Assembly: GCA_017302165.1 (NCBI GenBank)
Contig: JAFLCW010000004.1
Location: forward strand, 59,834 to 123,833
Direction of reading: 5' to 3'
Length of the DNA: 64,000 nucleotides
Source of the DNA: Alphaproteobacteria bacterium
Lineage (GTDB): Bacteria; Pseudomonadota; Alphaproteobacteria; Micavibrionales; Micavibrionaceae
Position 1 is the stretch's first letter. Each line of letters opens with the position of its first letter. Made by a program: the position numbers and the translations under genes. Of this stretch, positions 7,207 through 47,241 are shown one piece after another. The notes below the pieces were generated by a model that was not told the DNA's origin, made no database searches, and was given only the letters and a program-made list of their open reading frames with translations.

Positions 7207-9885
7207 ATGACACAAGCGGCATCTTTATTATTGCCAGACACACGCGCCGCCGAGGGGCACACGCCCATGATGGCACAGTATCATGCCGTCAAATCACAAC
7301 ATCCGGATTGTTTGTTATTTTACCGGATGGGTGATTTTTATGAACTTTTTTTTGATGACGCACTCACCGCCTCGCAGGTTCTTGATATCACCTTAACAAA
7401 ACGCGGGAAAACACAAGGCGAAGAAATTCCCATGTGCGGCGTACCCTTTCATGCCTATGAAGGGTATCTAGCACGCTTAATCAAGGCCGGACATAAAGTC
7501 GCTATCTGCGAACAGGTCGAAACCCCTGAAGAGGCCAAAAAGCGCGGCGGTTATAAGGCATTGGTGCGGCGGGATGTTATCCGAATTGTTACGCCCGGCA
7601 CATTGACCGAAGATACGTTGCTCGAGGCACGTGAAAATAATTTTATCGCGTGCCTGGCAAAAATCGGCGATGATATCGGCCTATCCTGGCTTGATTTATC
7701 AACCGGGGATTTCATGACCCAGGCGATTGCGCCACATGCCCTTGCCCCCGCGCTTGACCGTATTCATGCCAAGGAAATTTTGATCCCGGATACATTATCG
7801 GCGCAAACGGATCTGGCACCCTACCGCGATACACTCACCCTTCAGCCCGCCAGCTTGTTCGATAGCGGCAATGCGCAAAAACGGCTTGAAGATATGTACG
7901 GCGTTGGGTCACTTCAATCCTATGGGTCATTCTCCCGCGCCGAAATTGCGGCGGCCGGAAGCTTGATTGATTATATCCGCCGAACACAGGTGGGAAAAAT
8001 GCCGCGCCTTCAACCGCTTCGTCAGATGACGGCGCAGGATGTGATGGAGATTGATTCTGCAACACGGCGTAATCTTGAACTCACGCGCACGTTATCAGGG
8101 GAAAGATCGGGTAGTCTTCTGGATATCTTGGATCGTTGTTTAACGGCAGGTGGCTCGCGTCTGCTGTCTTTACGGCTGATGAACCCGCTCATGAATATCG
8201 CCGATATCAATCGACGTTTGGATGAGATTGACTCCTGCTTGTCACAGGAACCCTTGCGCCACAGCGTTCGAAAGATACTTCGGCAGGCGCCTGACATGGA
8301 GCGCGCTTTATCCCGCCTCAGTCTCGGACGCGGAAGCCCGCGTGATCTGGGCGGTGTACGTGATGGATTGATCTGCGCACAAAATCTACGGGCATTCTTG
8401 ACCTCAGGGTCGGCACCTTCGGGATTGAAAGACATCACCCAAGATTTGGCCATGGCATCCGGCACACGAACATGTGCAGATACGTTATCCCAAGCGTTAA
8501 TGGATGACCTGCCGTTCCTAGACCGTGAGGGCGGCTTTATCAAACCCGGATTTGCGCCGGAGCTGGATCAACTTCGCTCTCTTCGAGATGAATCTCGCGG
8601 CCATATTGCCGCGCTTCAACAAAAATATCGTACGCGCACGGGAATCGATACCCTCAAGATTTCATACAACAATATTTTGGGTTTCTTTATTGATGTTACC
8701 GCGCGTCATGCCGATAAATTAATGGTACGCAAGGAAGATGCGGGACAGGACAACCCGTTCATTCATCGTCAGACCTTGGCGAATAATGTTCGGTTTACCA
8801 CCCCTGAGCTTTCGGAGTTAGAGCGCGCGGTATCATCGGCCGCGGAAAAATCCATCGCAATTGAACAGGACTATTTTGCGCAGTTTGTGACCTTGGTCAT
8901 GGCAGAGGCCGAAGAGATATCGCGCCTGGCGAAAACCATCAGTGCTTTGGACGTTGCCTGTGCGCTCGCAGATCTGGCGCAGGATTTTCATTATACGCGT
9001 CCCCAACTGGACACGTCGTTCACGTTTGATATTCGCGGTGGACGGCACCCGGTTGTGGAATCTGTGCTTAAAAAATCAGGTCAACCTTTCATGGCGAATG
9101 ATGCCAATTTAAACCCCGCACAACGGCTCTGGCTTTTGACGGGGCCGAATATGGCCGGGAAATCAACCTTCCTGCGCCAAAACGCGCTCATCACCCTGAT
9201 GGCGCAGATGGGGTCTTATGTCCCTGCGACGTCTGCCCATATCGGTGTGTGTGATCGTTTGTTTTCGCGGGTGGGTGCGGCGGATGATCTGGCGCGCGGT
9301 CATTCCACCTTTATGGTGGAGATGATCGAAACAGCCGTAATTTTAAATCAAGCCACGCCAAGGTCGCTTGTCATTCTGGATGAAATAGGCCGCGGCACCT
9401 CAACTTTTGACGGACTGTCGATTGCGTGGGCGTGTGTTGAGCATCTGTATCACACCACACAATGCCGGGGATTATTTGCCACGCATTACCATGAATTGAC
9501 CTCATTGACCCAAACCCTGCCTGGCCTTGCGTGTTATTCGCTTCAGGTTAAAGAATGGAACGGGGAGATTATCTTCCTGCACACCGTCGGCGCGGGCACG
9601 GCCGATCGATCTTACGGGATTCATGTGGCAAAATTGGCGGGCATTCCCCCCGCCGTGGTCAGCCGCGCCGAGGCTGTTCTGGCTCTGCTTCAATCCCAAG
9701 GCAAGACCGGGCAAATCGCCAAAATGGCACAGGATTTACCCCTTTTCTCCAGCGCCCCGTCCCCTTTGGCGTCGCCGGTTTCGCCCGCTGAAGAAAAACT
9801 AAAGGCGATCAATCCTGACCAACTCTCGCCCAGAGAGGCGCTTGATCTGATCTATGATCTGAAATCCTTGACGGAAAAGCGATAA
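7207..9885 (+). CDS. mutS: DNA mismatch repair protein MutS
   Basis: [34 protein letters not shown] mismatch-binding N-terminus and Walker [10 protein letters not shown]. The ATG at 7207 is preferred over the track start at 7174, which overlaps dut. Confidence 0.95.
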
Positions 9886-9914: not shown

Positions 9915-10004
9915 GGAGAAGTGGCAGAGAGGCTGAATGCGCCGCACTCGAAATGCGGTATGCTCGCAAGGGCATCGGGGGTTCAAATCCCTCCTTCTCC
10001 GCCA
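9915..10004 (+). tRNA. tRNA-Ser (anticodon CGA)
   Basis: 90-nt cloverleaf read by eye: acceptor GGAGAAG/CTTCTCC, anticodon stem CCGCA/TGCGG with loop CTCGAAA, long variable arm, TTCAAAT T-loop, and encoded CCA. Confidence 0.9.
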
Positions 10005-10125
10005 TTAACTCATATTCAAACATCCAAAGACATTTAAGAAGATAGCAAAAATCAGTTGTATATACTGAATTTACAGTGTTTTTAGATATTTATACATCCA
10101 AATAAATTTATTGCAATCCAGCCCG

Positions 10126-10149
10126 TATATGCGTAGATTTATGAGTAGA
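10126..10149 (+). repeat. Island-left copy of an imperfect direct repeat (TATATGCGTAGA-N7-GTAGA)
   Basis: TATATGCGTAGATTTATGAGTAGA lies 12 nt upstream of the int ATG. It matches 17083-17106 at 18 of 24 positions, including a 12-nt exact block and the same 12-nt GTAGA spacing. Confidence 0.5.
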
Positions 10150-10160
10150 AAGGCGGGAAC

Positions 10161-11381
10161 ATGCCGCTAACAGAGCTTTCAATTAAAAGTCTTAAACCCA
10201 AAGCCAAACTGTATCGTGTGGCGGATTCCAACGGTCTTTGCCTAGAAATCACGCCTCAAGGTAATAAACTCTGGCGATGGCGGTTTTATCATCTGGGCAA
10301 GCCTCAAATGACCGCCCTAGGCAAATACCCCTATGTGTCTTTGGCTCAGGCACGAAAACTGAGGGATGAGGCCAGAGAAACCCTTAAATCAGGCAAGCAC
10401 CCTACCCTTGCCAAAAAAGCCCAAAAACTCCGCCGATCTCTTGAAGGGGCAAATACCTTCGAACGTATAGCGCGTAACTGGATGGAAAATAAGAAAAAGG
10501 GGCTAAATCCCAAATATGCCAAGCAGAGTCTTGAGCGATTAGAGCAACTTGTTTTCCCCATGATTGGCGCGTTACCCGTTACGGACATAACCATCCCTGA
10601 TGTTGTACGGGTGGTGGAACGCATTGGTAATCGTGGAACGATTGAAACGGCCAAGCGCATGAAGCAACTGATTGGCCAGATATTCCGCTACGCCGCACAG
10701 CGTGGCCTATGTGACCACAACCCTGCCGCTGACTTACGGGATATACTACCACCCAAAGAAGAAAAACATCACGCCTGTATTCCCTTGGCAGAATTACCCA
10801 CACTGTTACAGGCCATAGAAGGCCGTAAAAACGATTTCAGCAAATACGCCATGCAGTTACTTGCTTTAACTTTTGTCCGTACGGGGGAGCTAATAGGGGC
10901 AAAATGGGAAGAAATAGATTTTGAACGTGCTGAATGGCATATCCCCAAAGAGCGTATGAAAATGAAACGTCCACATTTAGTATCATTATCTAAGCAAGCC
11001 TTGGCTGTTTTAAAGGAATTACACAAAAAGACAGGAACAAAAACCCATATCTTTCACAGCCCCGCGAGTAAATCCATGCATATCAGCAATGGCACTGTTT
11101 TAATGGCCTTACGCCGCATGGGGTATCAAGGCCGCATGTCGGGGCATGGTTTTCGTACTGTTGCATCCACGCTTTTAAATGAAAAGGGCTATCCGCCTGA
11201 TGTTATTGAACGTCAACTTGCACATGAAGCAGAGGATAAAATTCGCGCCGCCTATAACCGCGCAGAATACCTATTAGAACGTAAAAAGATGATGCAGGAT
11301 TATGCGGATATGCTTGAAAAAATGAGAACTGCTAAAAATAAAGTGGTCAATCCAAGATTTGTTCAGGTTGGTGGCTCATGA
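10161..11381 (+). CDS. int: Tyrosine-type site-specific integrase (P4/CP4-57-like, DUF4102 N-terminal arm-binding domain)
   Basis: 406 aa. N-terminus LSIKSLKPKAKLYRVADSNGLCLEITPQGNKLWRWRFY. Catalytic region has ...RTGEL..., HGFR and ...LAHE...AYNRAEY (R-H-R-Y type). It sits next to a tRNA. Confidence 0.9.
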   Translation: MPLTELSIKSLKPKAKLYRVADSNGLCLEITPQGNKLWRWRFYHLGKPQMTALGKYPYVSLAQARKLRDEARETLKSGKHPTLAKKAQKLRRSLEGANTFERIARNWMENKKKGLNPKYAKQSLERLEQLVFPMIGALPVTDITIPDVVRVVERIGNRGTIETAKRMKQLIGQIFRYAAQRGLCDHNPAADLRDILPPKEEKHHACIPLAELPTLLQAIEGRKNDFSKYAMQLLALTFVRTGELIGAKWEEIDFERAEWHIPKERMKMKRPHLVSLSKQALAVLKELHKKTGTKTHIFHSPASKSMHISNGTVLMALRRMGYQGRMSGHGFRTVASTLLNEKGYPPDVIERQLAHEAEDKIRAAYNRAEYLLERKKMMQDYADMLEKMRTAKNKVVNPRFVQVGGS

Positions 11382-11995
11382 CAGTAAAATCCCCAAACAG
11401 AAAAGTATTTAGCTGGTCTGGAATAGGTACAAAAAAATTTGAAATATCCGAAGACAATTTTCAGAAAATTGAAAAGCAATCCAAAGTGAGGCTATTAAAA
11501 AAGCAAAAAAACAAGATCAATCGTATATTATTTGACCGTTCTGTAGAAATTGGCAGAGAAAAAAACGCACCCACGAGAGGAGATATTTTCTCAGAATTGG
11601 AAATCATTATAAAATCTATGGACAACATAGCTAAGGTCTTTGGTGTCGATACAGGAACAAAAGTTAAAAATAAGAAAGCTAAAGAGAATTTAAGAACACT
11701 TATTGAGGTTAATAAATACCCCAATTTAGATTTAGAGAGAATGCTATGCGACCTCTTGATAACGAGTGCAATTTGTCAAAATATCAAAAATGATTTTTCT
11801 CGTGATGATTTACAAGATCATGGGGGAAGAAATACGAATCCTATGATTAGCGAATTAATTAGCATTATAGGCTCTGATCCGCCTATAAAAACTATCGATA
11901 AATTTTTATCAGAGCTGAATAAAAAGATACCCAAAGAATATAAGATTGAAATTCCTTCAATCGATGCGCTAAAAAAAATAAAGCAAAGACAATAA
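11378..11995 (+). CDS. Hypothetical Lys-rich protein, translationally coupled to int
   Basis: 205-aa ORF whose ATG overlaps the int stop (ATGA). AT-rich. No recognisable domain. Confidence 0.5.
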   Translation: MTVKSPNRKVFSWSGIGTKKFEISEDNFQKIEKQSKVRLLKKQKNKINRILFDRSVEIGREKNAPTRGDIFSELEIIIKSMDNIAKVFGVDTGTKVKNKKAKENLRTLIEVNKYPNLDLERMLCDLLITSAICQNIKNDFSRDDLQDHGGRNTNPMISELISIIGSDPPIKTIDKFLSELNKKIPKEYKIEIPSIDALKKIKQRQ

Positions 11996-12035
11996 AGGGA
12001 CATAACCCTAATTTTTTATATAGGGTTTTGTCCCT
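11996..12035 (+). terminator. Composite stem-loop after orf205 (possible terminator)
   Basis: AGGGACA-t-AACCCTA-attttttata-TAGGGTT-t-TGTCCCT begins 1 nt after the stop. There is no clear downstream T tract. Confidence 0.4.
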
Positions 12036-12075
12036 TCTAATCTCGTGCCAATGAAATCGTGATATGGCTTAATTA

Positions 12076-12097
12076 CTCCAGTTAACCCTAACTGGAG
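12076..12097 (+). promoter_or_regulatory. Perfect 9-bp inverted repeat overlapping the alpA ribosome-binding site
   Basis: CTCCAGTTA-accc-TAACTGGAG. The right arm contains the GGAG located 7-10 nt upstream of the alpA ATG (12104). Confidence 0.45.
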
Positions 12098-12103
12098 ATA
12101 AAG

Positions 12104-12295
12104 ATGAATATATTAAAACTTCCCAAAGTAATTGAAAAAACGGGGCTTTCGAGAGCCTCAATCTATGCGTTTGTTAAAGAAGGTAAATTCCCCAAACCAA
12201 TCTCACTGGGTCTTAGATCTGTGGGCTGGGTTGAAGTGGAAATTACGCAGTGGATAGAGGAGAAAATGAATAGCAGAATGGGGAGCATGTCATGA
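12104..12295 (+). CDS. alpA: AlpA-family phage/island transcriptional regulator (excisionase-like HTH)
   Basis: 63 aa. LPKVIEKTGLSRASIYAFVKEGKFPKPISLGLRSVGWVEVEITQWI is the typical AlpA/Phage_AlpA pattern. Confidence 0.8.
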   Translation: MNILKLPKVIEKTGLSRASIYAFVKEGKFPKPISLGLRSVGWVEVEITQWIEEKMNSRMGSMS

Positions 12296-12702
12296 TTGAC
12301 GAAGATAATTTGCCACATAGACAGTCATTGAAAGAACAACGCAGAGAAGCGTCAGCTCCCCATGATTACAAATTACTATTATCCAAGCATGACGGTTATT
12401 TGTCTCAGTGGTGGAATACACCTAAAGAGAAGGCAGACCTTAAAAACCCTGAATATCCAGCCATATATTTGATTACTGAGAGATATTTCAAAGACCTTAC
12501 TTCAGTTGGTCAAGGCTGGGAGTATGAAATAGAAGAATTATTAAGCGCAGTTCGTTTGCGCATGGTGAAATCTTCTAAATTGCCCTTAGACGCTATAATG
12601 ATCATGGCCGCACTTGAAAATGGGTGCTCTGTCCATGATTTTAACCGCGTACCTTTAAAAGGTTATATCAGATTTCCTAAAGTGGTGATCTCTCATGCCT
12701 GA
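12292..12702 (+). CDS. Hypothetical protein (island replication-module orphan)
   Basis: 136-aa ORF. It has an ATGA overlap with alpA and an 8-nt overlap with the downstream ATPase. No recognisable domain. Confidence 0.5.
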   Translation: MIDEDNLPHRQSLKEQRREASAPHDYKLLLSKHDGYLSQWWNTPKEKADLKNPEYPAIYLITERYFKDLTSVGQGWEYEIEELLSAVRLRMVKSSKLPLDAIMIMAALENGCSVHDFNRVPLKGYIRFPKVVISHA

Positions 12703-13840
12703 AAAGTTAGCACCCGTGGCACATTGTAAAAAGTGCTTTTACTGCTATATACCAGCCCCTAAATGCCCCAATTGTGGAGAAAAAAATGTAGATTTTGTGC
12801 CAAGTAGATTACATCCATACCACATCGCGGAACTACACACCCTTCCTAAAAGAACATATCTGATTAAAGGCTTACTTGACTGCAATGCTTTAAGCGTTGT
12901 GTTCGGGGAGTCAAATTCAGGCAAGACTTTCTTTGTTATTGATCTGGCCTTAACCTTAGCTCTGGGGTGGCCGTGGCAAAGCCATAAGGCCAAACAGGGG
13001 GCGGTTTGCTATGTGGCCGCCGAAGGGGGCTTAGGATTAAAAGAACGATTAGATGCTTTTTTTCTGCACCATGAAATCAAGCCCCATATCCCATTTTACC
13101 TTATCCCTACGGGGGTGGATTTGCTGAATACCAATGGTGATACAGAGGAGCTTATTCAGCATATCTCGACTATCAAAAACTTAAAGATGGTTGTGATCGA
13201 TACCTTAAGCAGAGCAATGGCGGGAGGTAATGAAAACAGCCCAGAAGACATGACCGCCTTTATCCATAACTGTGATGAGATTAGGGAAGCCACAAGGGCG
13301 CATGTTTTAATTGTTCACCATTCAGGCAAAGATAGAGAGCGAGGCGCAAGAGGGCATAGCGCACTCAAGGCCGCCGTTGATACAGAAATTGAAGTGATAC
13401 AAACCGATGGCATTATTACCGCAGAGGTTAAAAAGCAACGTGATGGTAAAACAGGCCGTAAATATAACTTCACCCTGAATCCTATCGAAGTAGGCAAAGA
13501 TGAGGATGGCGATAAAATCGTATCCTGTGCCCTTATAGCTTCAGAGGCACAAGCCACCCCACGCCGTAAAATCAAAGGCCAGAAGAAAAGAGCGTTAGGA
13601 ATTATTCGGGATTGTATATCGGATAAAGGTCAAGTTAGACACGTTCGGCAGGAAATGCGTGCCGTGATGTGCATTTCCTTGGATGAAGCCAGAGAAGCTC
13701 TAAAGAGGGGCAACATTTCTGCGGCGGAAAAAGCGGATGATATTCGCAGAAGCATAAGCAAAGTGATAACAGAGCTAAATGACATAGGCGTTACAGTAAG
13801 TTACGGGGATTATATATGGCTTTCGGAACAAACGGATTAA
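12695..13840 (+). CDS. Zinc-ribbon + RecA-like ATPase (AAA_25 / RepA-type replication protein)
   Basis: 381 aa. N-terminal CKKC...CPNC, Walker A GESNSGKT, Walker B-like MVVIDTL, then ...VLIVHHSGKD...RGHSALKAAVDTEI, as in RepA/AAA_25 proteins of plasmids and islands. Confidence 0.7.
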   Translation: MPEKLAPVAHCKKCFYCYIPAPKCPNCGEKNVDFVPSRLHPYHIAELHTLPKRTYLIKGLLDCNALSVVFGESNSGKTFFVIDLALTLALGWPWQSHKAKQGAVCYVAAEGGLGLKERLDAFFLHHEIKPHIPFYLIPTGVDLLNTNGDTEELIQHISTIKNLKMVVIDTLSRAMAGGNENSPEDMTAFIHNCDEIREATRAHVLIVHHSGKDRERGARGHSALKAAVDTEIEVIQTDGIITAEVKKQRDGKTGRKYNFTLNPIEVGKDEDGDKIVSCALIASEAQATPRRKIKGQKKRALGIIRDCISDKGQVRHVRQEMRAVMCISLDEAREALKRGNISAAEKADDIRRSISKVITELNDIGVTVSYGDYIWLSEQTD

Positions 13841-13884
13841 ATCGGACGGAACAGAATTTAGTAAACGCCACAACAGGAAAGGAT

Positions 13885-13910
13885 AGGATCACCCCCTATA
13901 GGGTGATCCT
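13885..13910. repeat. Perfect 10-bp inverted repeat (hairpin) between convergent island operons
   Basis: AGGATCACCC-cctata-GGGTGATCCT, 45 nt after the ATPase stop. A second hairpin, CCACCCC...GGGGTGG, lies at 13938-13967. Confidence 0.45.
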
Positions 13911-14131
13911 TGATCCTGATGGTAAATTCAAAAAACACCACCCCGTCACCCCCAAAGGTAGGGGTGGGTTATTTAAAAATGGATAAGTAAGAAATTTTGG
14001 TAACTTTTGAATTCTAAGATTATTGTTATTTTCAAAAATCTGAAGAAACTTATAAAGAAGATAAAGGGTCAATAAGTTTCTATTGTATTTATTACCTTCG
14101 CAAAAAAATACGCCATCTTTTCATTTATTTT

Positions 14132-14950
14132 TTAGTGATGCGAAGCATTTTTAATTAGGGAAGGCAGTTGCGTAGCGTCTTCCTCTGTAATTAAAGTTGC
14201 ATGTTTGTCTCTCCGTAACAAAGCACATGCGTTTTCATATGATGATATAAGCTCTTCTTTGCCAGGGCGACCAACTAAAAAATAAAATTTAAATTGCTTA
14301 TCAGGGTTATTTTCTTCAATAGCATCGTGCCAGCCTTTGGTTTTATACACCTTCTCTAAGATCATATCTTCATTTGTCATGTCTAAAGAGATGGGTTTTA
14401 GGCAATGTAACGAACCGTTTTGATAGGCATATGGTATTTCAGCACTAAAACCTTCGAGGTTTATGTGCATCGGTTTAAACCAGTCTAACATTTGCCGCTG
14501 TTGAAGCTCTTTTTTGAATGTAGCCCAAACGGAGCTATCGGGTCGATGATTGGTTTTCTCTAGTTTTCTAGAGCAGACAAATCTGTCCATAAGATATTTA
14601 TATATCTCATTGAGATCATCCGCATATCCAGAGCCTTGCTTGCCCCATTGCACAGAGCTGGCATCATGTGGAAGTAGCTTTATGGAGTAATCGTCTACTT
14701 CAGAGTGAATAGCAAGCTGAGTTCTATAAAGAATTTGATATTCTTCTATGCTCTTGCAAATGTTGTCTAAGTATTTTTTAAGATGCTTCTGGCTAAAGTC
14801 AGGAAATATAGCTTTCAAAGCCCCTAAATCTGGGCGTATACCAAACCGAACCATTTTGGCTTCAGGAGAATAAAATAAAATGCCCACATTAACGCTCTCA
14901 TTTCTGAGGGTATCGTGTATGTAGTTTAATAATTTATATTCGTATTTCAT
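14132..14950 (-). CDS. DUF3037-family protein (function unknown)
   Basis: 272 aa. I recognise the N-terminus KYEYKLLNYIHDTLRNESVNVGILFYSPE as the DUF3037 signature (Y-x-hydrophobic...E-x-hNhGhhh). The ATG shares one base with the upstream kinase stop (TAATG). Confidence 0.6.
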   Translation of the reverse strand: MKYEYKLLNYIHDTLRNESVNVGILFYSPEAKMVRFGIRPDLGALKAIFPDFSQKHLKKYLDNICKSIEEYQILYRTQLAIHSEVDDYSIKLLPHDASSVQWGKQGSGYADDLNEIYKYLMDRFVCSRKLEKTNHRPDSSVWATFKKELQQRQMLDWFKPMHINLEGFSAEIPYAYQNGSLHCLKPISLDMTNEDMILEKVYKTKGWHDAIEENNPDKQFKFYFLVGRPGKEELISSYENACALLRRDKHATLITEEDATQLPSLIKNASHH

Positions 14951-15774
14951 TACGCTTTACCTATTATCCTCTTTATTTCCGTAATGCAATCATTTATATT
15001 ATTTCTTACATCAATAATATGTTGCAAAATTAGTACCACACAAGAGTTGTTGTCGTTAGCCCATTGTGAAGGCAGACAGTTGCCATATTCTAGAATCCGT
15101 TCGTCAGTTAGGTTTGCCCAAAGAGACGAAAATTCAGACATATCAATCTTACTGGAATTTTTTAAAATTTGGTTAATGAACAGGTGTGAGCCGGATGTTC
15201 GATATTTTTCTAACGCTCCAACTTCCCATGGATTTTTCCTTCCTAGGATTAATAAACCCATTGCCATAGGAAAGGCTTTCTCGTGATCTATAATGCTAAT
15301 AATGTCTCCATTCAGAAGACAATTAGCCTTGCCTGCGCCGCCACGATCATAATTTTCTATCAGTGCATCGAAAGCGAAGATGTTGCCTGCGCTTCGAAGT
15401 TGGCAGGCCGTTAGAGGCATATCGGTAGTAGGCACTTTTGCTGATGGCGGTAATGCCTGTGTAGCAAATACTACTCTGGCACTACTTTCTAGTCGTTTGC
15501 GAATGTTGACGTCTGCCACAGAGGCTATAAAATTATCATCTATAGTTACTGCAAATGACTGAGGTGTATGTAAGCCTAGATCGGCGGCAAGCAGGGAGGC
15601 GATAGCTTCTGCCGTGTACCCTTTAATGCCAGTATGAAGTTTATCTGATAGTTTGGCATATACATCAAATAGCTCTCCGTCAGCCTCAGCTCTGACAACG
15701 ATCATCAATGGTTCGCTTGCACCAGACAAACTAGGCACAACGCCGTTATAACCTACGGCCTTAGCTGTCTTCAT
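14950..15774 (-). CDS. Short HipA-like (protein-kinase-like fold) kinase
   Basis: 274 aa. Contains DVYAKL (candidate ATP-binding Lys), FDALIENYDRGGAGKANCLL (catalytic-loop D...N) and SIIDHEKAF (metal-binding Asp). AGGGG RBS lies 7 nt upstream. It lacks a HipA N-terminal subdomain. Confidence 0.55.
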   Translation of the reverse strand: MKTAKAVGYNGVVPSLSGASEPLMIVVRAEADGELFDVYAKLSDKLHTGIKGYTAEAIASLLAADLGLHTPQSFAVTIDDNFIASVADVNIRKRLESSARVVFATQALPPSAKVPTTDMPLTACQLRSAGNIFAFDALIENYDRGGAGKANCLLNGDIISIIDHEKAFPMAMGLLILGRKNPWEVGALEKYRTSGSHLFINQILKNSSKIDMSEFSSLWANLTDERILEYGNCLPSQWANDNNSCVVLILQHIIDVRNNINDCITEIKRIIGKA

Positions 15775-16094
15775 TTATTACCCCTAAATTAAATTTATCT
15801 ACTCTTTCTAGTAGTATCCTAAATCATATTAATTTGAATGAGTGTTCTTAAACAGATACGGGTTATTATATTATATAGGAACAATGTTGTTGTACAAATA
15901 GAGAGGGGATTAAACTAACCGATTGAAACAATTGTTATCTGGCGCAAAAAAATAGATTCACAAGCGTATTAACCCATAAAATCTTCTCTCTTTAGACCGT
16001 CGATCAGGATCAGCCTTGAAATTGATGCGTGCCCCCCCAGATCATGTTGGGGCGTATGATTGAGAATATTGTATTAATATGATACAGTACCTTT

Positions 16095-16514
16095 GTGAGT
16101 AATATATTAGAAGCTATAGTTGATACACAGCCTAGTTTTAACAAAGGTATGGGAAGGCCTCCCATTCTTTTCTCAAATGCCGACTGGCAAAATATTGAAA
16201 AACTCTGCTCATTAATGTGTACAGCCGATGAAATTGCCTTCTTTTTAGGCATTAGTATTGACACTCTATCCCGTCGCATTACAGAAACCTATGGATGCAC
16301 TTTTGCGGACTACCATAAAAAGCATATTGTGAGTGCAATTATCTCCCTTCGCCGCGCTCAATGGAAAAATGCCATGAAAGGCAATGCAACCATGCAAATT
16401 TGGTTAGGTAAGCAGTATTTAGGGCAGAAAAACAACATGGATTTAGTAGTCGCCACCTCTCCCATGGAAGGCTTAAAAAAAGCATGGGCGTGTGTAGAGG
16501 AAGATTTAAAATAA
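16095..16514 (+). CDS. HTH protein resembling phage terminase small subunits
   Basis: 139 aa with a GTG start. GRPPILFS...IEKLCSLMCTADEIAFFLGISIDTLSRRI (HTH) followed by ...RAQWKNAMKGNATMQIWLGKQYLGQKNN, a pattern I associate with terS-like proteins. Not verified by search. Confidence 0.45.
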   Translation: MSNILEAIVDTQPSFNKGMGRPPILFSNADWQNIEKLCSLMCTADEIAFFLGISIDTLSRRITETYGCTFADYHKKHIVSAIISLRRAQWKNAMKGNATMQIWLGKQYLGQKNNMDLVVATSPMEGLKKAWACVEEDLK

Positions 16515-16546
16515 GGTCAAATTAGTAAAATGTCCTATACTACAAC

Positions 16547-17002
16547 TCATTGGTAAGATGTATCTTGAAATGGATCTAAGGATATCTTTATATCTTCTCC
16601 ATCTTTAGTGATGGGCTTTATTTTTATAAGATTACGAGGATCTATCGCATTCTTTTCAGGGATAGATATACCCATACTACAGCTATAACCTCTATTATGC
16701 ATTTTTTGCCAAATCTCATGTCTTTCATTCCATAGGCGCTTTTCGCGATCTCTTTGGCTATAGTGGTATATTCCAAAACCTATAAAAATAATCCATGTGT
16801 ATAAGTATGCTGATTCTATAAAAAGTGGCTTATCAAAAATTGAGAAAAAAGCAGGGAATGCTGAGAAAAACCAAGCAAGCTTCATGTTTGTTTCTCTTTT
16901 AGAAATCCTATGTAATGAATAAGATATTTCAATCATCTCTCTTAATTCATGTTGTATGAAATTCTTGTCTTGGATTGGAATTTTATATTCTTCTAATTGC
17001 AT
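16547..17002 (-). CDS. Hypothetical two-TM membrane protein
   Basis: 151-aa AT-rich ORF with hydrophobic segments LAWFFSAFPAFFSIF and AYLYTWIIFIGFGIY. No recognisable domain. Confidence 0.5.
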   Translation of the reverse strand: MQLEEYKIPIQDKNFIQHELREMIEISYSLHRISKRETNMKLAWFFSAFPAFFSIFDKPLFIESAYLYTWIIFIGFGIYHYSQRDREKRLWNERHEIWQKMHNRGYSCSMGISIPEKNAIDPRNLIKIKPITKDGEDIKISLDPFQDTSYQ

Positions 17003-17082
17003 TTTTGCTCAGTTAATCTGTTTATTGTGAATATCCAATATTATCCATTGATATATAACTGGAACATAAGAAAACCAAACAA

Positions 17083-17106
17083 TATATGCGTAGAAAAGCG
17101 TGTAGA
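17083..17106 (+). repeat. Island-right copy of an imperfect direct repeat (TATATGCGTAGA-N7-GTAGA)
   Basis: TATATGCGTAGAAAAGCGTGTAGA, in the same orientation as 10126-10149, about 45-100 nt inside the composition shift at the right island edge. Confidence 0.5.
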
Positions 17107-17208
17107 TTTTTAGCCGTGTGAACAAACACATAGACAATTTAACACTTACAAGGAAATGTTAGGCGGGCTCCTTCGCCACGGTCTAAATTTTTTACCGCCT
17201 TTAAGAAA

Positions 17209-17790
17209 TTATTTGTTCAACGCCCACCCGGCCAGGCTGGCGGCAATGCCAGATTTGATGACCGTGCCGATCAAGAACGGGACAACCCCGGCAGTCAAGG
17301 CCGCGGCCAGACCCATCTGTGGCAAGCCAAACGCCAGCCAGAACATCCCTGCCGACAAAATAACGGCATGCCCCGCCAGCATCAGCGCGCACAACATCGC
17401 CAAGGCCGCGAAGCCGCGCGCGTGTTGTTTGATATATGCGAACCCGTATCCGGTAACCATTACGGCCAGCACAAACCCGGCCAGATACCCGCCCGTGGGC
17501 CCCGCAAAATAGGCGAGCCCCGGCAGAGCCCCCGCCGTCATGGCAAACACCGGAAAGCCCATCGCGCCCAAGGCAAAATAAGAGCCCAGAACCGTCAGTG
17601 CCATCCGAAGCCCCAGCAGACAGGGCAGAAGCAACACGACCGCTGTTTGAAACGTTATGGGAACAGGGATCATCGGCACCTGAATCCTTGCAGAGACAAT
17701 CAAGGCCGCTATACTCGCGATCCCCATCATCACTTGGAAAAGAAAAGGTGTTTCTGTGATACGGTTTTTAAAAATTTGGGCGGTGGTCAT
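17209..17790 (-). CDS. bioY: Biotin transporter BioY
   Basis: 193 aa from ATG 17790 (AAGGAG RBS upstream). ...PITFQTAVVLLLPCLLG...GPTGGYLAGF... matches the BioY pattern. The 279-aa track ORF is an upstream over-extension. Confidence 0.88.
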   Translation of the reverse strand: MTTAQIFKNRITETPFLFQVMMGIASIAALIVSARIQVPMIPVPITFQTAVVLLLPCLLGLRMALTVLGSYFALGAMGFPVFAMTAGALPGLAYFAGPTGGYLAGFVLAVMVTGYGFAYIKQHARGFAALAMLCALMLAGHAVILSAGMFWLAFGLPQMGLAAALTAGVVPFLIGTVIKSGIAASLAGWALNK

Positions 17791-19960
17791 AACGGTCTCC
17801 TTATGCCCTTGGGTTTTATCAGTTTCTGCCGTCTCTGCCAAGCCGCAGAACACCGCGAGCCAAAAACCCCTGTATATCGAAGTGCGCCGCCTGCCCGAAC
17901 GGCCACAAGATGTCCCGGCCAGCGTGCTGGTGATATCGAGGGATAAGATTGAGACCCAAAAAATTGCGAGCCCAACCGACATCGCGGATTCCGTCCCCGG
18001 TTTTTCGTTTAACGACCCGTTCGGGCGGTTTAACCCCGCGCCGTCCATGCGAGGGTTGATCCAGCCCGGTTTGGGGGATGATCCGTCTGTTGGGTTTTTT
18101 ACCGATGGGCTTTATATGTCGGGGCGGAGTTCGATCAATTCACTGGCGTTTGATCTGGCGCAAATTGACGTCGCTAAAGGCCCCCAGAACGCCTTGTTTG
18201 GCCGGAACAGTTTCGGAGGCACCATCAACGCCGTATCCAACGCACCGGAAAAAACAACCTATGGCTGGCTAGAGGCCGTATCGGGCACAAAAGACCGCCA
18301 TGAAATCACCGTCGGCGTGAATATGAATTTTTCTGACACCTTACAATCCCGGCTGGCGGTCTATTGGCGGGACTGGGGTGGGTATTTTAAAAATGCGTTG
18401 GCCAGTGGCCCTGATATCGGGCGCGAAAAAACATCGGCGGTTAAATTATCCACGGCCTTCACACCCAATGACCGGCGTGAATTTAATCTCCGTCTGGCCT
18501 ATGCCGAAGATGACGACAGTCAGCCCAAGGGATTTTTGGTGGAAACGAATTGCGGCCCCCGCACGACAGACGGTGTTTTGCGGTTATATTGTGGTGAACT
18601 GCCGGAACGCGGAAGCCCCTATTCGGCCAACGATGTCGGCACCGAACAATCCATGGGATATCACCGTGAACACACGCGTGGATCGTTAGAGTGGACGGAG
18701 TTTTTATCGGCGCGCACATCCCTCACCACGCTTATCGGCGGCGCCTATGAAGATTCTGTCTTTATTCGGGATGATGATTATCAGGCCGTCAATTCGGCAC
18801 GCGCCGGGGTGGATACACGCCGCCATGACATTCAGGTTGATACACGCCTTCATACCAAAACCGCAAATGGGCAATGGTCAGGGTTATGGGGGGTCAGCGG
18901 ATATCATTTTTTAAATACCGCAAACCGAATTGATCAATTTTATGTTTTGGGGCAAACCACGCCCGGCGGTGCCCGCGTGCATAACGGCACAGATACGCTA
19001 GGGACATATGGAAGCGTGACCTACCGCGCTGTCCCACAACTCGCGCTGACGTTAGATGGTAGATGGCAGGTCGAGAAAAAATTCCTGGCCAGTTCCACCA
19101 TCGCCGCCAGCACCGGACGATCCATTGATCTGGAAGATAGCTGGCGCGGCTTTACGCCCAAATTCACCACCAGCTGGCAAAACCCCTCAGGCCTTTTATA
19201 TTACGGTTCCGTGGCCAAAGGATATAAAACCGGAGGATTTAATGACCGCGCGAATATCCGCGAAACCGAACGCGTCTATCAGCCTGAAGAAAATATTACC
19301 TATGAAGTGGGGATTAAAAATATCAAACCCATAAATCGTGTTTCGCTCGATATGGGATTATTCTGGATTGATTGGCAGGATCAACAGGTTCTGGCCTATT
19401 CCACCGCGGGCACCACGCAGAATTTCTTTTTGAACAATGCCGGACAAACGACCAGCAAGGGGCTTGAGGCCAGCTTGTCCTGGGACGTCACCGATCATTT
19501 GAATGTAACTGCCGGATACACCTATGCCGATGCACGCTATGACCAATATAACGATCCGGATTTGGCGAACGTAACGGGGTTTGCCCCGAACGGAAATGTG
19601 TCGGGTAAGCGGCTTCCGCGTTATTCCCCGCATCAGGCCGTGCTGTCAGGGTCGTACCGGACGCCGTCCCCCCTACCCCGGACAGATTTTGTTATAGGAT
19701 CACAACTCAAATTCGATTCATCCCAGTTCACGGATAATTCAAACACCGCCAAAACAGGGGCACGGACACTGGTCAACCTTCAGGCCGGGCTGGATCATCC
19801 AGAAGGATATGCAGGTCTATGGGTGAATAACCTTTTGGATGAACGCGATCCGTCGGTGGGTATTCCCTGGACGGACGCCTCGCAAGGGTTTCGCCGGGAA
19901 TGGCTGGTCGTGCCCGAAGACGGCCTGACGGCAGGCCTGCGGATTAAGGTTAAATTCTAG
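17756..19960 (+). CDS. TonB-dependent outer-membrane receptor
   Basis: 734 aa with a signal peptide (...SVSAVSA/KP), a plug region ([10 protein letters not shown]...VPGF...MRG), a long beta-barrel region and a C-terminal aromatic residue (...IKVKF). The start is uncertain because it overlaps the bioY 5' end on the opposite strand. Confidence 0.85.
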
Positions 19961-39906: not shown

Positions 39907-40266
39907 TTATTTTTTGGTCGCCATGCCTTGGATGGTGGTACGAAGGGCGGTGACCTTCATCCCGCCGCCTAGATCGATGATCACTTCATCATCCTTGTCC
40001 TCAATTTTTTCAATCGTGCCAATCAAGCCGCCGGCGGTCACGACCTTATCGCCTTTTTTCAACGCCGAGAGCATATCGGCATGTTCTTTGAATCTTTTTT
40101 GCTGGGGACGGATCAACAACATGTAAAACATCACCACCAAAATGGCGATCAACCCCAGATTCCACATCACCGGATTACCGGGTGCCGCCGGGGGCATAGC
40201 CTGCACAGCGGCATCAGCGGCCACAGCGGCGGTTTCTTGCGCATAAGCACTTGATATAAAGATCAT
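39907..40266 (-). CDS. yajC: Preprotein translocase subunit YajC
   Basis: 119 aa from ATG 40266. ...LLIRPQQKRFKEHADMLSALKKGDKVVTAGGLIGTI... The track's 148-aa version is an upstream extension. Confidence 0.88.
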   Translation of the reverse strand: MIFISSAYAQETAAVAADAAVQAMPPAAPGNPVMWNLGLIAILVVMFYMLLIRPQQKRFKEHADMLSALKKGDKVVTAGGLIGTIEKIEDKDDEVIIDLGGGMKVTALRTTIQGMATKK

Positions 40267-40332
40267 TTCATGTTCCTTTGGCTTGAAATTGGAAATGGCC
40301 GGACTATACCGCCTTTGGGTATAAAAACAAGT

Positions 40333-41220
40333 ATGGAAACGGAACTTATGCACGTGCGCGAAGATCAGACAGACAATTTGCTAACTCTATTGACCCGCAT
40401 CGCCCAAGCGTTAGAAATTACAGCGGGTTCCGCCATGCCGACCTCTCCAGAAAATTGGGATACCGCCTCAGCGTGGGTCTGGAACCCTGACCCGGCGAGG
40501 CAGGCTTTGATGCCCGTAGCGGATACTGGCGCCCTGCCCTTATCGCTTTTGGTGGGGATTAATCCGCAAATAGATTTATTGAAAGATAACACGTGGCAAT
40601 TCGCCCAAGGATATTTGGCAAATAACGCGCTTCTTTGGGGGGCGCGCGGGATGGGTAAAAGTTCGCTGGTGAAATCCATTCACGCCGATATCGAACAGAA
40701 AAACCCGGGTGTGTTAAAACTGATTGAAATCCACCGGGAAGATATTTTATCGCTCCCGACACTCTTATCCATTTTAAGACAATATCCCACATACCGATTT
40801 ATTTTATTCTGTGATGATTTATCGTTTGATGAACAGGACGGAGCCTATAAATCCTTGAAGGCCGTTCTTGAAGGCGGACTTGACCGTCGTCCTGACCATG
40901 TTTTGTTTTATGCAACATCCAATCGCCGTCATCTGATACCGCGCCAAATGATCGAAAATGAACGCACCACCGCCATTCACCCGGGAGAAACTGTTGAAGA
41001 AAAAGTATCGCTGTCAGATCGCTTTGGGCTATGGCTTGGGTTTTATCCCTGCACGCAGGATGAATATCTGGCGATGATCACGGGATACGCGGGTCAATAT
41101 GGATTGACGTTCGATGACAAATCAGCCGTTGAATGGGCGACCACACGCGGAGCACGATCTGGGCGCGTGGCATGGCAGTACATTCAGCAGATCGCCGGGC
41201 AACAAAAAATCAAACTATAG
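40333..41220 (+). CDS. DUF815-family P-loop ATPase
   Basis: Walker A GARGMGKSS and Walker B ILFCDDLSF. The start is uncertain (40270, 40333 or 40348). Confidence 0.72.
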   Translation: METELMHVREDQTDNLLTLLTRIAQALEITAGSAMPTSPENWDTASAWVWNPDPARQALMPVADTGALPLSLLVGINPQIDLLKDNTWQFAQGYLANNALLWGARGMGKSSLVKSIHADIEQKNPGVLKLIEIHREDILSLPTLLSILRQYPTYRFILFCDDLSFDEQDGAYKSLKAVLEGGLDRRPDHVLFYATSNRRHLIPRQMIENERTTAIHPGETVEEKVSLSDRFGLWLGFYPCTQDEYLAMITGYAGQYGLTFDDKSAVEWATTRGARSGRVAWQYIQQIAGQQKIKL

Positions 41221-41221
41221 A

Positions 41222-42238
41222 TTAAAGATATTTATCCGGATTGACGGCTGTGGTGCCTTTGCGGATTTCAAAATGTAGTTGCGGGCTATCGACCTGACCT
41301 GTGGCTCCCACCGTACCAATGGCCTGCCCCCGTTTCACCACATCGCCTTTTTTGATCAGCGTTTTATCAAGATGAGCGTAGGCCGTCATCCATTTATCTT
41401 GATGGCGCACCAGTACCAGATTGCCATAGCCTTCGAGTTTATTTCCTGCATACACCACGACGCCATTTTCGGCAGACCGCACAGGCGTTCCCTTGGGTGC
41501 CTTGATATTAATCCCATCATTATGAAGTCCGCCGGATTTAGGGCCATAGCCTGAAATAATATGGCCATCTACCGGCCACATAAATTTGCCTGTATCGGCT
41601 CGCGGCGGGGTCTTGGGCATTTTCGCGGGTGCCGAAGCGGCAGACACCGGTTCAGCCCGCACAGGCGATGACGGCGGGACAGGTGCAGAAGAAGATGTCT
41701 TCTGGGTTATGACAGGATTGGCGTTCGCACGAGCAGAAGGAATGGGCGGCAAGGCTTGACGTTCCACGCCAGTGACTTGAACAGGCGGCGAGAGCGTTTC
41801 CGGTTCTTCTGGCATCACGCGCGGCTGAGGTTGAGGCGAAGGCAATCGTAAAACTTGTCCCGCGCTTAAGGCATAAGGGGCATTTAAATTATTCAAGCGC
41901 GCCAGTTGAAACACACTGGTATCAAATGTCGCCGAAATAGACTGCACACTATCACCCGGTTTCACACGATATTCATTGGGCGGGGGCAGTTTCAAACGAT
42001 ACCCAGAACTTAAGGTATACGGTGCCGACATGGCATTGACGGTGATAATATCCCGTATCGGCAGATTATATTGTTTGGATACAGTATAGACCGTATCACC
42101 GTCGAGTATGGTATGCATGCCTGTGCTTCCTGCGCCGGGCGTGACCCCATATGTCACCACAGGCGCAGAATCCTGACGTTTGGATAAACATCCACAAAGT
42201 ACCAAAGGCAAAAGCAGAAGAAGATGCGGATATCTCAT
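41222..42238 (-). CDS. LysM-domain M23 peptidase lipoprotein (NlpD-like)
   Basis: Lipobox LVLCGC, two LysM repeats, and the M23 core GINIKAPKGTPVRSAENGVVVYAG...GNLVLVRHQDKWMTAYAHL. ATGA overlap with pcm. Confidence 0.85.
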   Translation of the reverse strand: MRYPHLLLLLPLVLCGCLSKRQDSAPVVTYGVTPGAGSTGMHTILDGDTVYTVSKQYNLPIRDIITVNAMSAPYTLSSGYRLKLPPPNEYRVKPGDSVQSISATFDTSVFQLARLNNLNAPYALSAGQVLRLPSPQPQPRVMPEEPETLSPPVQVTGVERQALPPIPSARANANPVITQKTSSSAPVPPSSPVRAEPVSAASAPAKMPKTPPRADTGKFMWPVDGHIISGYGPKSGGLHNDGINIKAPKGTPVRSAENGVVVYAGNKLEGYGNLVLVRHQDKWMTAYAHLDKTLIKKGDVVKRGQAIGTVGATGQVDSPQLHFEIRKGTTAVNPDKYL

Positions 42239-42927
42239 GCGCTGTCTCCCGTCTCTGCCGCCACATCGGGGAGTAAAGGCACAAACCGAACGGGGCAAAT
42301 ATCGCTCACCAACCATGTATCGTCTGACAGTTTCACGTATTTTTTTAAAATCTGATCCGCCAGTGGCCCCACCGGCACCACCATGACACCCCCGATTTTT
42401 AATTGATCAAACAAAGATTGCGGGGGTTTATCTTGGGCTCCGGCCGTCACAATAATTTTATCAAACGGCGCTTGATCGACCCCATTGATGCGCGGCCAAC
42501 CCAGCATGCCATCCGCACACATGGCGGTGATATTTCGAAGATGAAGCTGGCGAAATAATATCTCAGCCTGATCCAGCAGAGGTTTATGACGTTCAATCGA
42601 ATATACGCGGCGGCAGATTTTAGACAAAATGGCGGATTGGTATCCTGAGCCTGTGCCGATCTCCAGCACCTTATCCCGATCCGTCAACGCCAGAGACTCA
42701 GTCATCAAGGCAACAATGTAAGGTTGGGAGATTGTTTGACCCCGCCCAATCGGGAGCGCCATATCATCCCATGCCCGGTCTTGCACCGCGGGGGGCATAA
42801 ATCTCTCTCGCGGTATATATTCCATAGCCGACAGCACCCGGGCATCACGTATCCCCTTATCGCGCAACAGCGAGACAAGACGGGCAGAATGACGAGAGGC
42901 ATATGACGTAACGGCAGGGGCGAGCAT
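42235..42927 (-). CDS. pcm: Protein-L-isoaspartate O-methyltransferase
   Basis: GQTISQPYIVALM and LEIGTGSGYQSAIL. Confidence 0.92.
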   Translation of the reverse strand: MLAPAVTSYASRHSARLVSLLRDKGIRDARVLSAMEYIPRERFMPPAVQDRAWDDMALPIGRGQTISQPYIVALMTESLALTDRDKVLEIGTGSGYQSAILSKICRRVYSIERHKPLLDQAEILFRQLHLRNITAMCADGMLGWPRINGVDQAPFDKIIVTAGAQDKPPQSLFDQLKIGGVMVVPVGPLADQILKKYVKLSDDTWLVSDICPVRFVPLLPDVAAETGDSA

Positions 42928-42979
42928 CGCACCCTTAGTGAATCACATGATTCCCCCGGATTCAAGGCATGTTTATGGC

Positions 42980-44281: not shown

Positions 44282-44394
44282 ATATTCCTCTTGTGTCATA
44301 CCTTCTTGTGTAATGGGGGTAAACATATCACCCGGCGTGCGCGGGCGAAAGATAGAATATCCCGTGACAGGGGTTGAAGGGGTGGTTTACACTG

Positions 44395-46006: not shown

Positions 46007-46060
46007 GATTTATTTATGACAAAATAATATGTTATCTGTCAATGTTCGTATATGAACGGC

Positions 46061-46702: not shown

Positions 46703-46731
46703 AAATAATTTTCATAAGATATAAAGCGGTC

Positions 46732-47130: not shown

Positions 47131-47241
47131 TTTCAATTGACGACATTGAAAACTCTATATATTTATCCTGCACCGCAATACGGATAAGACCTTGCCGGAA
47201 CGCGGTGAATTTGTTACGAACCCCTCAGCTTAACAAATTCT

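Follow-up and report, generated by a model that had tools for sequence, protein, structure and literature searches.

The island described here, about 7.1 kb in length, is best interpreted as a small integrative phage satellite that is active, or was until very recently. Its lineage appears to be uncatalogued and to join a minimal backbone like that of the PICMIs to a small terminase subunit (TerS) in the style of SaPIs and PICIs and a HipA-kinase/DUF3037 cargo. We give this reading a probability of roughly 60%. Since it carries genes for integration, replication, defence and packaging recognition without any for a virus shell, the island most likely represents a small parasite of phages, of a general type already known.

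General features and borders of the island

All coordinates are positions within the 64-kb window, the whole stretch of DNA that was analysed. The island spans positions 10005-17150 and its left end lies at or just after the 3' end of a tRNA-Ser(CGA) gene (9915-10004, forward strand; identified by ARAGORN), which is the integration target and has mutS on one side of the insertion site and bioY on the other. The G+C content of the island is 0.394, compared with 0.526 and 0.523 in the flanks and 0.493 in the genome, and only 0.36% of 7.1-kb segments of the genome have a G+C content as low. The island is compositionally foreign, and the preliminary description of an AT-rich element of about 7.1 kb right after tRNA-Ser(CGA) is borne out by the ARAGORN prediction and by these values. 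The alphaproteobacterial background that it had assumed is also supported, the nearest named MutS homologues being those of Micavibrio and Alphaproteobacteria MAGs (61-64% identity). The island was found neither in G001, the only genome of the same genus, nor in 29 other relatives; it is accessory.

The attL/P' arm region (10005-10160, forward strand) contains two motifs. CATCCAA lies 17 nt past the tRNA end, and the attL of the related island L037 has CATCCAA at an equal offset. The tandem motif TATATGCGTAGA-TTTATGAGTAGA lies at 10126-10149, 12 nt 5' of the int ATG, and a copy of this int-proximal motif, TATATGCGTAGA-AAAGCG-TGTAGA, is present at the right end (17083-17108, forward strand). 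The int-proximal motif occurs three times in the window, at the island ends only, a count reached in none of 100 shuffles, and G009 and L206 have it 5' of their related integrase genes as well. Both motifs may be arm-type or core-type Int sites, and the right-end copy probably represents P-arm Int-binding sites.

The right edge near 17150, which cannot be fixed to the exact base, agrees with the jump in G+C content. The zone from 17109 to 17208 (no strand assigned) must hold the attR junction, with the bioY stop codon at 17209. The tRNA-Ser 3' end has no second copy anywhere in the window, and the attL sequence has no significant repeat at the right border. The best gapped candidates for attR, at 17123-17142 (p ~0.05) and 17168-17177 (p ~0.09), are not significant against shuffled sequences. 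The L037 island, by contrast, has a direct repeat of 63 nt at its borders. The window copy may be unable to excise precisely. L206 is also without a long repeat, so that short cores may be the rule for this group.

The L037 island is 9.1 kb long and carries, at tRNA-Ser(cga), an integrase (68% identity), an orf205 homologue, AlpA, an AAA_25 protein and terS (52% identity). The L206 and L207 islands are located at the syntenic mutS-tRNA-Ser site, with identities of 68% for int, 55% for AlpA and 60% for RepA. In the handful of genomes examined, tRNA-Ser(CGA) is occupied by related islands in L037 and L206/L207, and no prophage was found there. No terS is recognisable in L206, L207 and L208, the closest relatives by RepA, so the gene is not common to all members of the wider group. 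The compact order of genes was seen again in independent contigs, likewise devoid of structural genes. The viral contigs of IMG/VR yielded no representative of the island's lineage.

Backbone genes

The integrase gene int (10161-11381, forward strand) encodes a full-length P4-type tyrosine integrase of 406 aa with Arm-DNA-bind_3 (PF13356), Phage_int_M (PF22022) and Phage_integrase (PF00589) domains. It matches phrog_1 at 2e-67 and has the same length as its 68% identical counterparts in L037 and L206. The ATG of orf205 (11378-11995, forward strand) overlaps the int stop codon as ATGA. The protein has no family match in Pfam, PHROG or NCBIfam and shares 35% (L037) and 33% (L206) identity with the product of the gene in the same position. 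By position, orf205 corresponds to iolg of the PICMIs (PMC10803314), which makes it a candidate excision cofactor.

The palindrome CTCCAGTTA-ACCC-TAACTGGAG (12076-12097, no strand assigned), with 9-bp arms, ends 6 nt before the ATG of alpA and is a candidate operator or hairpin occluding the ribosome-binding site. The alpA gene (12104-12295, forward strand) encodes an AlpA-family excisionase/activator of 63 aa (PF05930 at 6.7e-24; phrog_2790, excisionase/regulator). At its start, orf136 (12292-12702, forward strand) overlaps the alpA stop codon (ATGA), and 8 nt at its end are shared with repA. Its product has no family match in Pfam, PHROG or NCBIfam and no homology to the protein of about 98 aa at the equivalent position in L037, L031 and L042; by position, it corresponds to up1 of the PICMIs.

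The repA gene (12695-13840, forward strand) encodes a RepA-type replicative helicase, an AAA_25 RecA-fold ATPase (PF13481 at 8e-40) with a zinc-ribbon-like CxxC...CxxC motif at its N-terminus. Its PHROG matches are the helicase halves of primase-helicases, it has no primase domain, and no Toprim remnant was found anywhere in the island. The protein is not truncated, since most of its closest homologues (51-60% identity; named 'helicase RepA family') are 350-400 aa long. Just 3' of its stop codon, the palindrome GGATCACCC-CCTATA-GGGTGATCC (13886-13909, no strand assigned) is a candidate terminator or origin. No iterons were detected in the island with TRF and no replication origin was identified.

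The int, AlpA and AAA_25 RepA genes have the same orientation, and every ORF of the island is intact and as complete as its homologues. None of the nine ORFs matches a capsid, tail, lysis or conjugation family in Pfam, PHROG or NCBIfam, in agreement with the preliminary description, and a relaxase, an oriT and transfer genes were likewise not detected in the island. Every gene assignment of that description was upheld by profile tests, among them the RepA-like call, backed by the PF13481 match and the names of the closest homologues; its gene list, however, lacked orf205.

Predicted defence cargo

Two genes on the reverse strand encode a DUF3037 protein (14132-14950; PADLOC PDC-M66B at 9e-48, near full length; PF11236) and a HipA-like Ser/Thr kinase (14950-15774; PADLOC PDC-M66A at 5e-53, near full length; PF20613, HipA_2), predicted to act as antitoxin-like partner and toxin/effector, respectively. 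One base (14950) is common to both genes, indicating that they are translationally coupled. HipA-like kinase and DUF3037 pairs have been validated elsewhere as the defence system DS-6/HipAD (PMC13092281, PMC12548924), and the antitoxin-like role of the DUF3037 partner has been described (PMC12548924, PMC13092281). The island pair, PDC-M66, is likewise a two-gene coupled kinase and DUF3037 unit and is predicted to be defence cargo of the DS-6/HipAD type, although the described DS-6B partner also has a DUF1829 domain, which Pfam did not find in the island protein. With the island, this recently validated pair gains a further natural occurrence on a mobile element. Such defence systems are often carried by satellites.

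Convergent with terS, orf151 (16547-17002, reverse strand) encodes a protein with two predicted transmembrane segments and no family match in Pfam, PHROG, PADLOC or NCBIfam. In relatives this position is taken by unrelated small membrane or secreted ORFs, and it constitutes a variable accessory slot.

A small terminase homologue

The protein of 139 aa encoded by orf139 (16095-16514, forward strand) has an N-terminal HTH and long helices, and synteny together with the tree identifies it as a genuine TerS homologue and orthologue. Its direct PHROG match is weak (phrog_309, 4.8e-4) and the fold search against PDB gave HTH-regulator and terS matches that were weak only; the BFVD fold matches are all phage proteins, some of them named TerS. 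A total of 190 homologues were found. In phage contigs L033-L036, relatives of orf139 overlap or sit directly before TerL and portal genes. At about 45 of 80 genome loci of homologues there is an ORF of 400-540 aa immediately downstream, and eight of ten such downstream ORFs sampled are terminase large subunits (Terminase_6N, 6C or 3); TerL or portal is present at 51 of 80 IMG/VR loci. The island proteins form one clade (SH-aLRT 98) made up of the window copy and those of L031, L041, L042, L044, L046 and L047. No member of this supported clade has an adjacent TerL, which argues that terS is retained in elements having no other packaging gene. The terS-like call of the preliminary description, put forward from the start as refutable, is upheld by synteny and phylogeny. 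The host of L047 is a Pseudobdellovibrionaceae MAG.

The genome holds other prophages and prophage remnants, and the phage terminases present in it are in principle open to hijacking. It has no paralogue of the island terS, none of the resident TerLs closely resembles those that accompany the orf139 family (best 30% identity), and no helper phage was identified in the genome.

Comparison with known satellites

The experimentally characterised PICMI115 of the Vibrionaceae has the gene order int-iolg-alpA-up1-prim, and its replicase is followed by a hotspot for defence genes (PMC10803314). The overlap of iolg with int in PICMIs is usually ATGA (PMC10803314). The island is of the same size class (about 7.1 kb, against 6.1 kb for the PICMI; PMC10803314) and has int, an ATGA-overlapping gene, alpA, a small gene and a replicase in the same order, a match that is positional and by description. 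In both, defence genes lie downstream of the replicase and capsid-remodelling or structural genes are absent, and in both groups relatives differ in which gene they have at the place of iolg. PICMIs, however, are found in vibrios and next to fis, whereas the island is at tRNA-Ser(CGA) in a Micavibrio-like alphaproteobacterium; the PICMI core is int, alpA and prim, whereas the island replicase is a RepA-type AAA_25 helicase without primase or Toprim. In architecture PICMIs come closer to the island than PICIs do, but they are without terS, sid and ppi, whereas the island encodes a TerS homologue.

PICIs are recognised by a conserved organisation of integrase, replication module and master regulator, which in Gram-negatives is AlpA, and by a unique att site never occupied by prophages; the size used in screening is about 12-15 kb, terS is present only in some of them (PMC6092414), and the TerS encoded by some PICIs and SaPIs directs the terminase of the helper towards satellite DNA instead (PMC6092414). 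Induction that depends on a phage, interference with that helper and specific packaging into its particles are further hallmarks of PICIs (PMC6092414). The island shares the integrase, AlpA and replication module organisation, a TerS as in some PICIs, the lack of structural and lytic genes, and the presence of accessory and defence cargo. It is about half the usual 12-15 kb, outside the size criterion, and has no fused pri-rep. The preliminary description had called integrase, AlpA, replication protein and terS the hallmark layout of PICIs, which was overstated given their size and the sporadic occurrence of terS (PMC6092414). In SatelliteFinder, PICI Types A and B require enough of int, a regulator and pri-rep together with hijacking genes (terS, ppi, rppA, capsid morphogenesis), and an element with int, AlpA and primase/replicase only is set aside as 'Type C' (PMC10085698). 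Of the SatelliteFinder PICI markers, our own profile and synteny tests found int, alpA, replicase and terS in the island; ppi, rpp and capsid morphogenesis genes had no match in Pfam or PHROG.

P4-like satellites carry Psu, Delta, Sid, Ash/epsilon and an alpha primase-helicase besides int and AlpA (PMC10085698, PMC8628076). A P4-like assignment was rejected: the unassigned ORFs have no PHROG or Pfam matches of the Psu, Delta, Sid or Ash type, and RepA is without the primase part. VEIMEs are elements of marine bacteria recovered from virions, where they occur as concatemers in full-size capsids (PMC9618062). Like the island, they are small, have no capsid genes and carry genes for AlpA, a primase/helicase and an integrase of the tyrosine type; some of their modules include TerS homologues, and they occur in Alphaproteobacteria too (PMC9618062). 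VEIMEs are defined by virion recovery, whereas the island is known from chromosomal DNA alone and is likened to them by description.

Alternative explanations

The island could be an immobilised satellite remnant, no longer equipped with a usable attR or, perhaps, an origin, and now fixed in the genome as a defence island retained for its PDC-M66 kinase system. The right border without a significant repeat of the tRNA end or attL, where L037 keeps its 63-nt repeat, the lack of identifiable origin iterons and the lack of a matching helper in the genome all favour immobilisation. We nevertheless regard it as unlikely: int, alpA, repA, terS and the other ORFs are intact and full length, an Int-site-like motif is still present at both island ends, the short core may be normal as in L206, and the absence of the island from the only same-genus genome suggests that it was gained recently.

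Mobility might instead be independent of phages. In a tycheposon-like or other replicative island spread by vesicles, transformation or generalised transduction, orf139 would be an HTH regulator and not a packaging protein. The combination of int, AlpA and RepA is not diagnostic by itself, as the setting aside of 'Type C' illustrates, the PDB fold matches of orf139 are weak, and the relatives L206 and L208 have no terS. Yet orf139 is a positional orthologue of phage TerS across phyla and belongs to an island-specific clade, and without a phage it is difficult to account for a gene known only as a large-terminase partner; moreover, relaxase, oriT and transfer genes were not found in the island. 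Such an element is quite improbable here. Decay of a temperate phage, with terS, int and AlpA left over after deletion of the structural genes, is more improbable still. Both terS and int are phage-derived gene types and there are other prophages and remnants in the genome, but independent contigs repeat the compact gene order with no structural genes, the island terS clade stands apart from the phage copies, the island contains no pseudogene remains of a TerL, portal or capsid gene, and its ORFs are tightly packed and overlapping.

Proposed life cycle and implications

As a small phage satellite, the island integrated at tRNA-Ser(CGA) would express int and the overlapping orf205 as a pair. 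Infection by, or induction of, a helper phage would switch on the alpA-orf136-repA operon, whose ribosome-binding site is overlain by the palindrome. AlpA and Int, possibly with orf205, would then excise the island, and the RepA helicase, with host priming, would produce island concatemers. TerS would recognise a pac site in island DNA and recruit the large terminase of the helper, leading to headful packaging of several island copies into helper capsids. The island has no capsid-resizing gene. The PDC-M66 pair would guard the host, and hence the island, against other phages.

It is also possible, if doubtful, that the island represents a distinct uncatalogued lineage of minimal satellites whose sole hijacking tool is a lineage-specific TerS, forming one clade found so far in islands only, and whose hosts include obligate predators (the Micavibrio-like alphaproteobacterium and the Pseudobdellovibrionaceae MAG). 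In that case, TerS and a backbone of some 5 kb would suffice to parasitise pac-type phages, and predatory bacteria would harbour phage, satellite and defence as a system of three levels. Phages of predatory bacteria are almost unstudied. To our knowledge no phage-satellite system has been characterised in the Micavibrio-like lineage, and a literature search gave nothing specific. If active, the island would be among the smallest TerS-carrying satellites and would link the 'minimalist' PICMI design with the TerS-redirection strategy of SaPIs and PICIs. At present it amounts to a well-supported annotation and not to a discovery, since mini-islands of a similar kind that carry terS have already been described in marine viromes.

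Genomic setting and host

The island occupies positions 10005-17150 of the window. It lies between a tRNA-Ser(cga) gene (9915-10004, plus strand, identified with ARAGORN) and bioY (17209-18048, minus strand), with mutS ending upstream of the tRNA gene at 9885; both mutS and bioY were identified by profile searches. The flanks have a GC content of about 0.53 on both sides, and values of 0.31-0.46 are found across roughly 10000-17150. GC content is 0.394 for 10005-17150 versus 0.493 for the 2.0-Mb genome, and a value this low is reached in just 0.36% of equal-length genome windows. We regard the island as real and as foreign in composition. A search for its DNA in the one same-genus genome (G001, 97% complete) and in 29 other relatives found none, and the island is therefore accessory rather than core. 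The preliminary description had placed the island in an alphaproteobacterial background, which is borne out by MutS, whose nearest named homologues (61-64% identity) belong to Micavibrio and to unnamed Alphaproteobacteria and Rhodospirillales metagenome-assembled genomes (MAGs). Because of these homologues the host is probably alphaproteobacterial, and a Micavibrio-like lineage is suggested.

Gene content and replicase

Profile searches confirmed every gene assignment that had been made from the sequence and added one gene. The P4-type integrase gene int (10161-11381) has Arm-DNA-bind_3, Phage_int_M and Phage_integrase matches and encodes 406 aa, a length equal to that of relatives 68% identical to it. 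The ATG of orf205 (11378-11995), which has no family match, overlaps the int stop as ATGA. The orf205 stop is directly followed by an inverted repeat, long and interrupted (AAGGGACATAACCCTA...TAGGGTTTTGTCCCTT, 11997-12036), which is probably a terminator between the unit of int and orf205 and the alpA operon. The latter begins with alpA (12104-12295; PF05930, 7e-24), on whose stop orf136 (12292-12702) starts, also as ATGA, to end 8 nt inside the RepA gene (12695-13840). RepA is an AAA_25 RecA-fold ATPase (PF13481, 8e-40) with an N-terminal CxxC...CxxC motif. Downstream, a minus-strand cargo pair (14132-15774), whose two genes share one base, gives nearly full-length matches to the PADLOC models PDC-M66B (DUF3037, 9e-48) and PDC-M66A (HipA-like kinase, 5e-53). 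It is followed by orf139 (16095-16514), the small-terminase (terS) candidate, and by orf151 (16547-17002, minus strand), which has no match and two predicted transmembrane segments. As the preliminary description had it, structural and transfer genes are lacking: the island ORFs are without matches to capsid, tail, lysis or conjugation families. No origin iterons were found in the island with TRF.

The nearest RepA homologues (51-60% identity) come from sources that include Micavibrio and Alphaproteobacteria, several of which name them as RepA-family helicases. Truncation of RepA by loss of a Toprim domain was suspected because the replicases at three related loci (L037, L031 and L042) are 648-649 aa long, with about 255 extra N-terminal residues of weak Toprim similarity. 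This was rejected: there is no Toprim remnant in the island and most of the near homologues are 350-400 aa long, so the short form is a normal architecture.

A putative small terminase

The terS-like assignment of orf139, the weakest of the calls and one that the preliminary description named as refutable, held up, mainly through conserved synteny. Among 190 homologues of similar length, those on phage-sized contigs (31-37% identity) overlap or directly precede a large terminase gene (terL), followed by portal. A 400-540-aa ORF lies immediately downstream of the orf139 homologue at about 45 of 80 loci in species-representative genomes, and eight of ten such ORFs sampled match Terminase_6N, 6C or 3. 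TerL or portal was likewise detected by tblastn at 51 of 80 IMG/VR loci. The AlphaFold model is all-helical with a helix-turn-helix (pLDDT 82); its fold matches in BFVD are phage proteins only, some of them named TerS (best E-value 2e-5), and those in the PDB are weak (the phBC6A51 protein 2ao9, E 0.5; Sf6 gp1, rank 28). The PDB sequence search returned nothing useful. Since the direct match to a terS PHROG (4.8e-4) and the PDB matches are weak, the assignment leans on the conserved synteny, which makes a strong case for orf139 as a small terminase.

A quick IQ-TREE analysis of 157 homologues, excluding those with a reconstructed ORF of less than 90 or more than 230 aa, is the sole source of support for a seven-member clade (SH-aLRT 98) that joins orf139 with L031, L041, L042, L044, L046 and L047, of which L046 is on the same contig as L037. 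TerL adjoins terS in none of the seven members, and five of them are in int/AlpA/AAA_25 islands. Two members are from predatory-bacterium lineages, namely L047 (a Pseudobdellovibrionaceae MAG) and the host of the window, with MutS nearest to Micavibrio; given the small sample, this could be a coincidence.

Ends of the island

Exact searches and searches allowing 2-3 mismatches found no repeat of the tRNA 3' end (attR) in the window, and gapped local alignments of attL, the tRNA end of the island, with the right border were no better than shuffles. The 12-mer TATATG(C/A)GTAGA occurs three times in the 64 kb, a number reached in none of 100 shuffles. A tandem pair (10126-10149) precedes the int ATG by 12 nt, and the third copy, with a TGTAGA half-site after it, lies at the right end (17083-17094). 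The same motif is found upstream of related integrases at tRNA-Phe in another genome (G009) and at locus L206. We read these motifs as arm-type Int-binding sites of the P' and P arms, which would put the right junction in 17109-17208, a position that fits the GC jump. The G009 integrase (L029, G009:C1:385860-387081; 58-63% identity) is split by a TAA stop and keeps the upstream motif as TATGTGCGTAGA-AAAG-TGAGTAGA.

No empty site was found in G001, where the contigs break at the tRNA gene and inside bioY, or in other genera, where the genes downstream of the tRNA differ and are not syntenic. Metagenomes scanned with the exact 3' half of the tRNA gene yielded a single, unrelated contig.

Related islands

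At L037, a MAG contig, a 9.1-kb island at tRNA-Ser(cga) carries an integrase (68% identity), an orf205 homologue (35%), AlpA, a 99-aa ORF, a 648-aa Toprim-like plus AAA_25 replicase, terS (52% identity) and five cargo genes. Its two ends are marked by the copies of a 63-nt direct repeat (103-165 and 9236-9298; 89% identical, 46 nt exact). No more than 6 nt of this repeat, the final ones of the tRNA, belong to the tRNA gene and the other 57 nt lie downstream, so that the gene is hardly affected by integration. L031, L042 and L047 share the order AlpA or HTH_17, small ORF, AAA_25, cargo and terS.

The closest RepA homologue (60% identity) is in L206 and L207, from two metagenome samples, at a syntenic mutS-tRNA-Ser(cga) site where the host MutS is 63% identical to that of the window. 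Both carry int (68%), an overlapping 204-aa gene (33% to orf205), AlpA (55%) and RepA. They have the same core and flanks and different small genes after RepA (about 10700-11550), which suggests turnover of the cargo in the slot after the replicase. No recognisable terS was found in the RepA-closest islands L206, L207 and L208. The gene sets of the relatives therefore describe a recurrent and mosaic backbone with a variable cargo slot after the replicase, and only part of the wider group has terS.

The source genome (G000) has a second island of the same backbone at tRNA-Gly(tcc) (G000:C1:419827-~431000), with a 430-aa integrase (42% identity), a 147-aa gene that overlaps the int stop (ATGA), an HTH_17 excisionase, a 384-aa AAA_25 RepA and, downstream, a 950-aa SMC/RecF-like ATPase and other cargo. 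We saw no homologue of terS among its genes.

Comparison with known elements

The 6.1-kb satellite PICMI115 consists of int, iolg (ATGA overlap, required for excision), alpA, up1, prim and up2. Its replicase is followed by a defence hotspot, a packaging gene is lacking, and the element is packaged as head-sized concatemers (PMC10803314). The island matches PICMI115 gene for gene and position for position, including the ATGA overlap, but has another target site, another type of replicase and another host, and carries terS in addition. With Gram-negative PICIs, which are sought in a size range of about 12-15 kb and many of which remodel capsids, it shares int, AlpA, a replication module and terS, the last present only in some PICIs (PMC6092414). 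Marine VEIMEs, recovered from virions, include small int/AlpA/helicase/TerS elements of Alphaproteobacteria (PMC9618062). An element with int, AlpA and a primase or replicase only is an uncertain 'Type C' for SatelliteFinder (PMC10085698). The cargo pair corresponds to PDC-M66, a type shown experimentally to be a kinase-toxin/DUF3037-antitoxin defence (PMC12548924) and validated as DS-6/HipAD (PMC13092281).

We favor, with a probability of roughly 0.6, a small phage satellite, or one active until very recently, that would use its own TerS to divert the terminase of a helper. An immobilised satellite remnant now serving as a defence island is unlikely; the missing attR repeat speaks for it, and the integrase of undiminished length against it. 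A phage-independent integrative element is rather improbable; the relatives that share the backbone without terS speak for it, and the synteny of orf139, that of a phage packaging gene, speaks against it. That same phage kinship would suit a decayed prophage, which the gene content, free of structural matches and recurring in related islands, makes very improbable.

Candidate helpers

The genome has no terS paralogue elsewhere, and none of its proteins match the structural proteins of the phages that partner this terS family. In viromes, a single-protein IMG/VR search found nothing and a profile scan found phage contexts only. A virulent phage is an equally possible helper.

Three regions of the source genome have phage-like genes. 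The first (G000:C1 ~40000-52000) encodes a serine recombinase, an ImmA/IrrE-like protease-regulator, a Terminase_6N/6C TerL, DUF5681 and a ParB-methylase (the last three at ~48-51 kb), with no portal or capsid nearby; the region is a prophage remnant or else a further hitchhiking element, and its TerL has only 30% identity to one TerL partnering this terS family. A prophage-like region at tRNA-Tyr (G000:C2 ~80000-95000+) has a serine recombinase, a lambda GpA-type large terminase, a ParB-methylase, a 713-aa Toprim plus AAA_25 primase-helicase (34% identity to the L037 replicase) and a HipA_C kinase. A T7-like podovirus prophage (G000:C2 ~228200-245000), one end of which adjoins nhaA, encodes a T7-type TerL, portal (phrog_332), major head and tail tubular proteins, a cell-wall hydrolase and a GTA-type holin with three transmembrane segments.
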